Shown here: in pieces, positions 1,908 to 4,238 of the stretch | Layout of the letters: every line of letters begins with the position of its first letter | Numbering within the stretch: the stretch's first letter is position 1 | NCBI GenBank assembly: GCA_016180085.1 | Contig: JACPBX010000007.1 | Span: forward strand, 1 to 53,745 | DNA from: Candidatus Woesearchaeota archaeon | Lineage (GTDB): Archaea > Nanobdellota > Nanobdellia > Woesearchaeales > UBA10216 | Length of the DNA: 53,745 nucleotides | Direction: 5' to 3' | Notes under the pieces: model-generated | Databases searched by the model: none | What the model was told of the DNA's origin: nothing | What the model saw: the letters and a program-made list of their open reading frames with translations, nothing else | Translations under genes and position numbers: made by a program

Positions 1908-2618
1908 ATGGTCTTAATTTGTGCCATTGATGAGGCGGGCAGTTTATTCTTTTAGCAGCTGTTGCAGATGCTAATCGATAAGTCTATAGGCCCCATCATC
2001 GGCCCGATGGTAATGTGCGGCGTGCTGACTGACGAGGAAGGCGCTGCCGAGCTGAAAAAGATTGGTGCGAAGGATTCAAAGCTCCTGTCTCCAAGGCAGC
2101 GGCAGCAGCTGTTTGGCAAGATAGTCAAAATTGTCAAGGGCTACAAAATCGTAATCATAAGCCCTGCCGAGATAGACGCCTCTGTCAAGTCAGATGATGG
2201 CATGAACCTGAACTGGCTCGAGGCGCACAAGTCTGCCGAGATTATCAATGCCCTGAATCCCGAAAAAATAATTATTGACAGCCCGAGCAACAACGTGAAA
2301 AATTACAGGAAATACCTTATTGAGCTGCTGAAAAACAAGAAAATCGAGGCTGTTGTGGAGCACAAGGCTGACGTCAACCATGTTGAGTGCTCTGCCGCGT
2401 CAATACTTGCGAAAGTTACCAGGGATGAGGAAATAGAAAAAATCAAGAAAGTTGTGGTTGAAGACTTCGGCAGCGGCTACCTGGCAGACCCTAAGACTAT
2501 TGAATTCTTCGACAAATACTTTGAGACTTATCCTGACATCTTCAGGAAGAGCTGGGCCCCTTACAGGAAGAAGGCTGATGGCAAGTGGCAGAGGAAGCTG
2601 GGCGAGTTTGAAGAATAG
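1908..2618 (+). CDS. rnhB: Ribonuclease HII, interrupted by a 45-nt putative intron (exons 1908-1942 and 1988-2618; 221 aa spliced)
   Basis: ATG 1908 gives MVLICAIDEAG. Removing 1943-1987 gives AGA (R) and continues GPIIGPMVMCG. Downstream motifs IIDSP, HKAD, SAASILAKVTRD, DFGSGY and RKSW are RNase HII hallmarks. Confidence 0.92.
1943..1987 (+). other. Putative BHB-type mRNA intron in rnhB
   Basis: Central helix GGGC(1937-40)/GUCU(1982-85), bulges AG|U and AU|A, intron stem UUAUU/GAUAA and UUAGCA/UGCUAA, in-frame TAG at 1953. Confidence 0.8.
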
Positions 2619-2990: not shown

Positions 2991-4238
2991 ATGGCCATTG
3001 ATGAACATGTGAAAAGGCTAGGCAACCCGGATACGCTTGTCGAAGCTCTTAAAGCGGCTGGTTCGCCTGGCTTTTCAAATTTTACAGCAGCCGACTTTTT
3101 GAGGGGACTGAATCTTGTGCTGAAAAATGAAGAGTACAGGGCTCTTTTTTTCAAACACATAAGTGCTGCCGATTTAGTTGGACTGTTAAAAGAGCCGCCA
3201 GTAAGCCTTAGTTATTTTGAAACGCTTCAGCTTATGATGCTGCTGCCAACGCCAAAAATCCTGTCCTTCGTTTTTGCAGCTGGCACTGATGCGAAGTCCG
3301 ATCTTGAGGGCATAATCAACGGGATTCACAGTGGCGGTTTTAACCCCTCTGACCGGCTGCATCTGGAGCTGGAGTACTCAAGATATGCTACCAGGTTTTA
3401 TTCGCCGTTTTTCGAAACCACCATACCCTTTCCTTATTGCGATATGCCGTTCGAGAGTTTCGCTAAACTGCCTTTTCTGGATGGGCAAGAGGTAATTCTG
3501 ACTGACCGGGATTACAGAGAGGCCGAAAAGACAGCAAAAGAGGCCCTGAGCGTTCTTAACTTTGTCAAAGGCAAAGTAAGTCCTGCAGTTCCTCTTATGG
3601 TTATAGGCAACATGCGCTATGGCAGCCTCTTTGTAGTCAAGCCAATAGAAGATTACCTGGCTGAGCTGGGCGTTAAAGTGGTGCATGATGAATACGTTAG
3701 TTCCAGCGATTTTGACAGAACTGATAAACGTGTTGGAGATATTTCCAAAGGGACTCTTGACTGGATAGCCGAAAATGCTCCGAATGTAATTGTTGTTGAT
3801 GGCACTTCCAATAATCATGTCTTTGACGAGTGGGAGGTTGGTAAGCCAATAGATGACGCAGTTAGGTTCCCGGCAGCTATGCTTGGCTACATTTATGCGT
3901 TCAGGGACTTGAATCGCTACCATGAACTCAAAGTACCTCACTACGAATTGAATTTTTGGGCTCCCGAAATGCGAGAGCGTGTATTTGTTGGTGAACACGA
4001 AGTGCGCTACAAGCCAGTTGTTGGTGATGGCAGCCGCGAACTTACTATCGTGTGTTCAACTTCACTTGGCCCAGAGTCGTCCCACGGTTACTTTGACAAC
4101 CCTGAAAAGCGCGCAAGGAGGTTTGTACTGGGTTTCACAAGCAGCGGATTAAAATGGAGAATGGCTGCATCTACAGATGATTTTGTAGAAGCGGTACAAC
4201 AGCATATGAAAGTCGTGATAGCTGAGTTGTTGCGATAG
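2991..4238 (+). CDS. Hypothetical protein
   Basis: 415-aa ORF; no family recognised. Confidence 0.65.
   Translation: MAIDEHVKRLGNPDTLVEALKAAGSPGFSNFTAADFLRGLNLVLKNEEYRALFFKHISAADLVGLLKEPPVSLSYFETLQLMMLLPTPKILSFVFAAGTDAKSDLEGIINGIHSGGFNPSDRLHLELEYSRYATRFYSPFFETTIPFPYCDMPFESFAKLPFLDGQEVILTDRDYREAEKTAKEALSVLNFVKGKVSPAVPLMVIGNMRYGSLFVVKPIEDYLAELGVKVVHDEYVSSSDFDRTDKRVGDISKGTLDWIAENAPNVIVVDGTSNNHVFDEWEVGKPIDDAVRFPAAMLGYIYAFRDLNRYHELKVPHYELNFWAPEMRERVFVGEHEVRYKPVVGDGSRELTIVCSTSLGPESSHGYFDNPEKRARRFVLGFTSSGLKWRMAASTDDFVEAVQQHMKVVIAELLR

Follow-up and report, generated by a model that had tools for sequence, protein, structure and literature searches.

A putative bulge–helix–bulge intron in the RNase HII coding sequence of Woesearchaeota

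Archaeal tRNA introns are removed from an hBHBh′ motif, a bulge–helix–bulge (BHB) set between an exon helix and an intron helix, and they also occur at non-canonical positions and as multiple introns (Marck and Grosjean 2003; PMC5829648). Substrates in messenger RNA are few. Besides an intron in a Haloferax 5′ untranslated region, only the crenarchaeal cbf5 mRNA intron has been reported (Schwarz et al. 2020, PMC7714728); papers from 2018 and 2025 cite the cbf5 work alone for pre-mRNA substrates, and introns in other protein genes were merely predicted as of 2009 (PMC2738675). Here we describe a 45-nucleotide (nt) insert at positions 1943–1987 of a 53,745-nt stretch of DNA (the window; contig JACPBX010000007.1) from a Candidatus Woesearchaeota archaeon. 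It interrupts rnhB, the gene for RNase HII, and at a probability of roughly 0.87 we read it as a genuine mRNA BHB intron, spliced by EndA and RtcB, in the single rnhB coding sequence of this genome.

The closest described system is the cbf5 pre-mRNA intron of Desulfurococcales and Sulfolobales (Watanabe 2002; Yoshinari 2006; PMC2738675). It is 16–44 nt long and splits the codon of a catalytic Asp; cleavage separates the second bulge base from the third, and lineages have gained and lost the intron (Yokobori et al. 2009, PMC2738675). The rnhB insert is like it in being short, protein-free and inside a coding sequence, in splitting a codon of a catalytic motif, in the predicted place of the cut within the bulges, and in being patchy among relatives and too short for a homing enzyme. 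The two differ in host, cbf5 being a gene of Crenarchaeota and the rnhB case belonging to Woesearchaeota within DPANN. They also differ in machinery: cbf5 introns mostly have an unconventional BHB and a heterotetrameric endonuclease, whereas the rnhB motif is mostly canonical and the genome encodes a single, apparently alpha4-like EndA. Splicing of cbf5 has been confirmed by cDNA; that of rnhB is predicted from sequence.

Other systems share parts of this arrangement. The BHB intron of Haloferax volcanii HVO_1309 (Schwarz 2020, PMC7714728) is likewise a case in which the substrate of the splicing endonuclease is an mRNA, not a tRNA or rRNA, but it lies in the 5′ untranslated region, interrupts no reading frame and was demonstrated experimentally both in vivo and in vitro. 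Archaeal tRNA introns have the same motif, enzymes (EndA and RtcB) and size range; the rnhB host differs in being an mRNA in which the strands of the exon helix are codons, so that protein and structure both constrain the sequence. The splicing of eukaryotic HAC1/XBP1 mRNA by IRE1 and RtcB is similarly spliceosome-independent, with an endonuclease that cuts two stem-loop or bulge sites, RtcB-type ligation and a changed reading frame, but it uses another endonuclease and motif and serves a regulated stress response.

In the published literature searched, up to 2025, we found no intron in rnhB or in any woesearchaeal mRNA, nor the putative BHB mRNA introns that the first-pass annotation of this DNA had listed for some DPANN archaea. 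Judged against that literature, rnhB is very probably the second archaeal gene family, after cbf5, with a BHB intron in its coding sequence, and it lies in a different superphylum from Crenarchaeota.

The interrupted rnhB gene

The window corresponds to contig C36 in the metagenome-assembled genome (MAG) of a groundwater archaeon, which totals 1.0 Mb in 45 contigs and is 83% complete. Read without splicing, the frame from ATG 1908 encodes MVLICAIDEAG (ending in GGC at 1938–1940), SLFF, an in-frame TAG at 1953–1955 and QLLQMLIDKSI before it reaches GPIIGPMV from 1989. Direct reading therefore agrees with the first-pass description of two in-frame rnhB parts, 1908–1940 and 1989 onward, split by a hairpin with an in-frame TAG. 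Excision of the candidate intron (1943–1987, + strand) would join exon 1 (1908–1942, + strand), which comprises the 11 codons of MVLICAIDEAG and AG, the first two bases of an Arg codon, to exon 2 (1988–2618, + strand), which supplies the last base of that codon, A, and then 209 codons from GPIIGPMV to a stop at 2616–2618. For 45-nt deletions that leave DEAG and GP intact, a start at 1941 or 1942 produces Ile and a start at 1944 produces Ser; 1943–1987 alone gives AGA (Arg), as had been claimed. The predicted spliced junction is GGGCAG joined to AGGCCCC (GAGGCGGGCAG joined to AGGCCCCATC), and the predicted circular-intron junction is AAGTCTAT joined to TTTATTC.

Every helix and bulge that the first-pass annotation had named is present in the sequence. 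The 5′ strand of the exon helix (h; 1928–1936, + strand) pairs with 1990–1998 as 3 base pairs (bp), an A-C mismatch and 5 bp, with a one-base slip (1989/1990–1998). The 5′ strand of the central helix (H), GGGC (1937–1940, + strand), lies in exon 1, where it consists of the Ala wobble base and the Gly codon; its partner within the intron is GUCU (1982–1985, + strand), with two G-U pairs. The 5′ bulge AGU (1941–1943, + strand) has its predicted cut between 1942 and 1943, and the 3′ bulge AUA (1986–1988, + strand) between 1987 and 1988. Within the intron, UUAUU at 1944–1948 pairs with GAUAA at 1977–1981 (the intron helix h′, 5 bp) and UUAGCA at 1952–1957 with UGCUAA at 1969–1974. The topology is that of pre-tRNA introns: a bulge follows the central-helix strand on each side, and the 5′ strand is exonic and the 3′ strand intronic.

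Exon 2 matches the Pfam family RNase_HII (PF01351) with an E value of 2.6e-35 over model positions 9–197 of 199. The eight model positions that it leaves uncovered are the first eight, the (G/A)IDEAGRG motif, of which exon 1 supplies IDEAG. An intronless orthologue aligned from residue 4 to the structure of Pyrococcus RNase HII (1uax), and V-D-E-A-G-R-G-P fell on chain residues 6–13. Because this alignment puts the Asp–Glu pair at D7–E8, exon 1 carries the pair that we take to be catalytic from established work on the Thermococcus and Pyrococcus enzymes.

A never-spliced insert could be a mobile hairpin, resembling a miniature inverted-repeat transposable element, in a cell that uses a truncated protein starting at 1962 or 1968 or that makes no RNase HII. 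An open reading frame (ORF) of 218 amino acids does start at TTG 1962, but its translation lacks the Asp–Glu pair aligned to D7/E8, as the first-pass annotation had stated. A blastn-short search with 1937–1992 against all 45 contigs returned the locus itself only, and the next match was 16 nt, so the insert is not a dispersed repeat of this genome. Random insertion, moreover, would neither hit the same base in the 16 lineages described below nor keep a compensating, exon-paired 4-bp helix. We regard this explanation as very unlikely.

The same low standing applies to a decaying pseudogene, in which a hairpin insertion inactivated rnhB and the likeness to a BHB is accidental. The in-frame TAG, the loss of the Arg codon on read-through, the reduced genome (~1 Mb at 83% completeness, in a group that loses genes readily) and a fold z-score of merely −1.79 would all suit decay. 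Both exons are intact, however, and the frame of exon 2 is open to its stop with zero lesions in 209 codons. Exon 2 is 93% identical to that of an intronless orthologue (L004), and its ratio of nonsynonymous to synonymous substitution (dN/dS) is 0.04–0.09 at synonymous divergences (dS) of 0.7–2.2 against six close orthologues, five of them intronless, and 0.05–0.09 at dS 0.7–1.3 against the intronless ones; by this measure it is under strong purifying selection. The gene is also the only rnhB match in all 45 contigs of the 83%-complete genome, and in 15 other lineages an insert occupies this very base, its helix covaries and the frame is restored, a combination that chance or decay cannot yield.

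Inserts at the same codon in related genes

Copies of rnhB were located in 37 of 40 relatives and on another 80 public contigs, and the sequence upstream of the GP codons was inspected. Most loci are uninterrupted, with DEAG(R/K)GP or, in a clade resembling Pacearchaeota, DDAGRGP; interruptions occur in ten distinct loci. With an intronless full-length query, rnhB matches were obtained in 364 of 401 genomes of the order. Matches that started at residue 9–12, or that had extra length with stops, were flagged, and inspection at the sequence level was confined to these; six further carriers were fetched and confirmed among them. At least 10 of the 150 matches listed carry the insert. The tally of 364 includes thirteen unpublished genomes (G335, G229, G154, G227, G231, G143, G204, G294, G323, G134, G356, G354 and G392), which contributed zero intron-bearing loci; the first seven of these are among the 150 listed matches and were counted as not flagged. 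Within the window's own family, 6 of 23 examined genomes have the insert, and approximately 90 other rnhB orthologues are uninterrupted at the site. One genome (G141) with a long match span that suggested an intron proved intronless here. The closest public relatives are groundwater MAGs labelled Candidatus Woesearchaeota. Several close Woesearchaeota-type rnhB loci (for example, L037, L038 and L042) occur in public MAGs labelled 'uncultured Methanosarcinales archaeon', which looks like a bin mislabel.

The sixteen carriers, including the window copy, are distinct rnhB genes of the Woesearchaeota type from independent assemblies, and the comparison with related MAGs that the first-pass annotation had proposed shows that all the inserts interrupt the Arg codon at one and the same point, between its second and third bases. 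Their lengths are 20, 21, 22, 23, 27, 28, 30, 31, 31, 33, 35, 35, 38, 39, 45 and 106 nt. Fifteen contain a stop in the frame of exon 1, and the remaining one shifts the frame. Cutting in silico by the published BHB rule (PMC2738675) restores both the frame and the motif [DE][DE][AS]G-R-GP in 16 of 16, with one candidate per locus that satisfies the geometry.

These lengths bear on translational bypass from GGC 1938–1940 to GGC 1989–1991, as in T4 gene 60, or recoding of the TAG. The insert does lie between two identical GGC codons, the first of which precedes a stop and a hairpin. A GGC-to-GGC hop would, however, yield DEAG-PIIG, without the conserved Arg-Gly, and in relatives the flanking Gly codons differ (for example, GGA/GGC and GGT/GGC). 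Recoding would add 15 residues to the catalytic loop, and read-through is impossible in 10 of the loci because the insert length is not a multiple of 3. Bypass and recoding together seem to us highly improbable.

The 5′ bulge is AGU, AGA or CGA in all sixteen loci. The CGA case (L121, genome G279) has a rebuilt Arg codon of CG plus A rather than AGA, and the position of the intron is kept despite the changed codon family. On its 5′ side, the central helix has the form N-G-G-N, in which both N are wobble bases, of the Ala/Ser and Gly codons. Across the 16 loci, the first position is occupied by C-G, A-U, U-A, G-C and G-U pairs and one A-C mismatch, and the fourth by C-G, A-U, U-A, G-C and U-G pairs. 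These two free positions are thus paired in 31 of 32 instances, which was matched in 0 of 20,000 shuffles of the intron strands among loci. Over its whole length, the helix is paired at 63 of 64 positions in register, against 13–34 of 64 when the partner strand is slid by 1–3 bases. On these counts, the central helix is kept by compensatory change.

The intron helix is paired equally well, with 63 of 64 of its first four pairs formed in register. It has 2–10 contiguous bp and at least 4 bp in 15 of the 16 loci; L121 has 2 bp and a one-base bulge, followed by 8 more pairs. The unconstrained minimum-energy fold is the exact BHB in 11 of the 16 loci, and in the others the BHB is within 2.8 kcal/mol of it.

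Codon choice around the site differs between carriers and non-carriers. The Glu codon is GAG in 15 of 16 carriers against 13 of 41 nearer non-carriers (Fisher p = 2e-5, a significance that is inflated by kinship), and in carriers the pair of codons that follows Pro ends in UC-AUC with much higher frequency. The exon helix GAUGAGGC/GCCCC(A/G)UCAUC is what this bias fits. Selection on the helix or co-transfer of flanking sequence with the intron would explain it, either one being sufficient.

The introns fall into loose sequence groups: that of the window is 58% identical to the intron of L012 and 64% to that of L022, L006 groups with L015 (74%) and L029 with L044 (84%). None of the 20–106-nt introns contains a homing-endonuclease ORF (LAGLIDADG or other). 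The longest (L028, genome G024; 106 nt, the others being 20–45 nt) is an ORF-free hairpin of nearly pure A/T, with long A and T runs that form a 10-bp stem.

An assembly artefact, in which a chimeric or misjoined read put 45 nt into the gene, can be weighed against the same comparison. The source is a metagenome-assembled draft in 45 contigs, and we found no second assembly of the exact intron. The related introns in L012 and L022 nevertheless occupy the same site in independent assemblies, inserts occur there in fifteen other assemblies in all, and the window's insert pairs specifically with its own flanking exon. We give an artefact next to no weight.

Predicted splicing of the window copy

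The genome encodes the enzymes that such splicing would use. EndA is represented by one gene (contig C40:45896–46387), the 197-amino-acid product of which has an N-terminal and a catalytic domain (PF02778 and PF01974), an organization that indicates an alpha4-like single-subunit enzyme. DPANN alpha4 enzymes with an extra loop have been linked to more disrupted tRNA genes (PMC5829648). RtcB (PF01139) is encoded on contig C15:48015–50810 (− strand; L113 and L114). Its match is split, with model positions 1–58 and 49–426 lying approximately 1.4 kb apart in a single 1001-codon open frame; this is most likely an intein inside the RNA ligase. ARAGORN, with introns allowed, found only 23 tRNA genes in the 83%-complete genome, 14 of them with predicted introns, which implies that BHB splicing is heavily used in this organism. 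Together with the single rnhB, the 15 further carriers, the covarying helix and the frame restored in 16 of 16, the presence of EndA and RtcB upholds the first-pass proposal of a BHB intron in rnhB.

From these observations we infer the following course. The gene would be transcribed with the insert included, and exon 1 of the pre-mRNA (1928–1940) would pair with the last part of the intron and the first part of exon 2 to form the exon helix, the 4-bp central helix, the two bulges and the intron hairpin. The single-gene alpha4-like EndA would cut two bases 3′ of each central-helix strand, after 1942 and after 1987; RtcB would join the exons and thereby create the AGA codon and the motif DEAG-R-GP; and the 45-nt intron would be released, probably as a circle. 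Unspliced mRNA would yield a 15-residue peptide that ends at TAG 1953, or a protein from an internal start that lacks the Asp–Glu pair.

Several points about the window copy and its relatives count against this interpretation. Its unconstrained minimum-energy fold pairs the AG of the bulge and lacks the 4-bp GGGC/GUCU helix, and the BHB conformation lies 2.8 kcal/mol above that fold. With its two G-U pairs, its central helix is the weakest of the 16 loci. A weak central helix in a BHB that is not the minimum-energy fold means that splicing of this copy could be inefficient. Thermodynamic folds also leave G1989 unpaired, which makes the 3′ bulge four bases rather than three unless exon G1990 is looped out. 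Beside the bulge, the exon helix is poor in the DESG-type relatives L006, L015 and L117, so that the motif is somewhat relaxed, and alpha4-type endonucleases are classically viewed as strict (PMC5829648). An exact 31-mer of the window intron had 0 matches in metagenome contigs, and the exact product from ATG 1968 was absent from the protein records searched, in searches from which records of the same genome may be missing. Because the stability of the window hairpin is unremarkable (8 of 200 shuffles fold equally well), the case for an intron rests on the relatives rather than on the fold.

The first-pass annotation had also suggested that the genome hides more such genes, and a homology-free scan of the 45 contigs lends this no support. 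The scan, which asked for a 4-bp helix, an intron stem of at least 5 bp, an exon helix of at least 3 bp and two open frames joined, recovered rnhB. It returned 129 candidates for 3-base bulges and, in controls with impossible bulges, 120 for 5 bases and 138 for 6 bases. Of 32 candidates that were inspected, rnhB is the only one that looks like a gene split in two, although the method is insensitive; the 31 others seem to be either shadow frames or neighbouring genes that each have a start of their own, as with the end of a lipoyl-synthase gene and the gene that follows it.

Upstream of rnhB, an A/T-rich, promoter-like motif, AAACCGTCAACATTAAAAACA (1866–1886, + strand), contains a TATA-like box that ends approximately 23 nt before the ATG, and the motif is found at equal distance before the ATG of the intronless orthologues L004, L007, L008, L009 and L013. 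This conservation suggests a putative promoter and an rnhB mRNA that is leaderless or nearly so. Directly downstream, a 94-amino-acid ORF (2656–2940, + strand) has a very acidic N-terminal half and a Cys-rich C-terminal segment that is treble-clef or YHS-like, with Pfam matches below threshold (E ~6e-4 to 9e-4); the next ORF (2991–4238, 415 amino acids) has no Pfam match. ARAGORN and Rfam searches of the 53.7-kb window gave no tRNA or other match.

Distribution and persistence of the intron

When 108 exon 2 proteins are placed in a maximum-likelihood tree, 14 state changes are required to account for the 16 carriers, compared with a mean of 15.1 for shuffled labels, with the proviso that six carriers (L123–L128) were added to the tree for carrying the intron, which inflates carrier frequency. 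Carriers are not more clustered on the rnhB tree than shuffled labels. All 16 fall within one 78-row clade and 0 within the 30-row DDAGR clade. A single ancient gain followed by simple vertical descent does not fit this tree.

One allele has a mosaic structure. In a genome of the window's genus (G007; L006, contig JACPTF010000016.1), exon 2 is 80–90% identical to that of genus mates, whereas the upstream gene, exon 1 and intron are 69–76% identical to those of L015, from another genus, and 54–60% to those of genus mates. Such a mosaic is suggestive of recombination that had its breakpoint at the intron. The overall pattern fits repeated precise loss with occasional recombinational transfer. 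More tentatively, the rnhB insert may be a member of a family of BHB mini-introns that lack an endonuclease and have entered one conserved coding site by lateral spread among Woesearchaeota lineages, possibly through recombination that carries the flanking exon, as the mosaic allele suggests; we consider this the less probable account of the distribution.

The distribution also bears on whether the intron, if real, is kept as a regulator of RNase HII, acting through EndA/RtcB capacity or through whichever of splicing and translation comes first on a leaderless mRNA. The first-pass annotation had proposed that EndA activity controls RNase HII production. In a trivial sense this holds, as splicing would be obligatory for active enzyme, and with the intron just 35 nt away from the start codon, in an mRNA that is probably leaderless, translation and BHB folding could compete. 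A conserved regulatory role is argued against by the patchy distribution: orthologues 93% identical are intronless, and 14 changes for 16 carriers amount to clustering no better than that of shuffled labels. Intron sequence and length also diverge freely outside the helices, the pattern of a tolerated element. We therefore think a regulatory role unlikely; the intron most likely persists as a tolerated, selfish or neutral element that is occasionally lost or transferred.

Sixteen independent carriers and a covarying helix indicate that this way of splicing coding sequences is not peculiar to Crenarchaeota. The rnhB introns bear on the origin and mobility of archaeal introns, since carriers are scattered among non-carriers on the gene tree. 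They would also offer a compact substrate of approximately 75 nt for studying how a single-subunit DPANN endonuclease acts on mRNA and how splicing and translation may compete on a leaderless transcript. Standard gene callers will mis-annotate such DPANN genes as truncated or as pseudogenes, and the metabolic and repair capacity of these archaea would be understated as a result.

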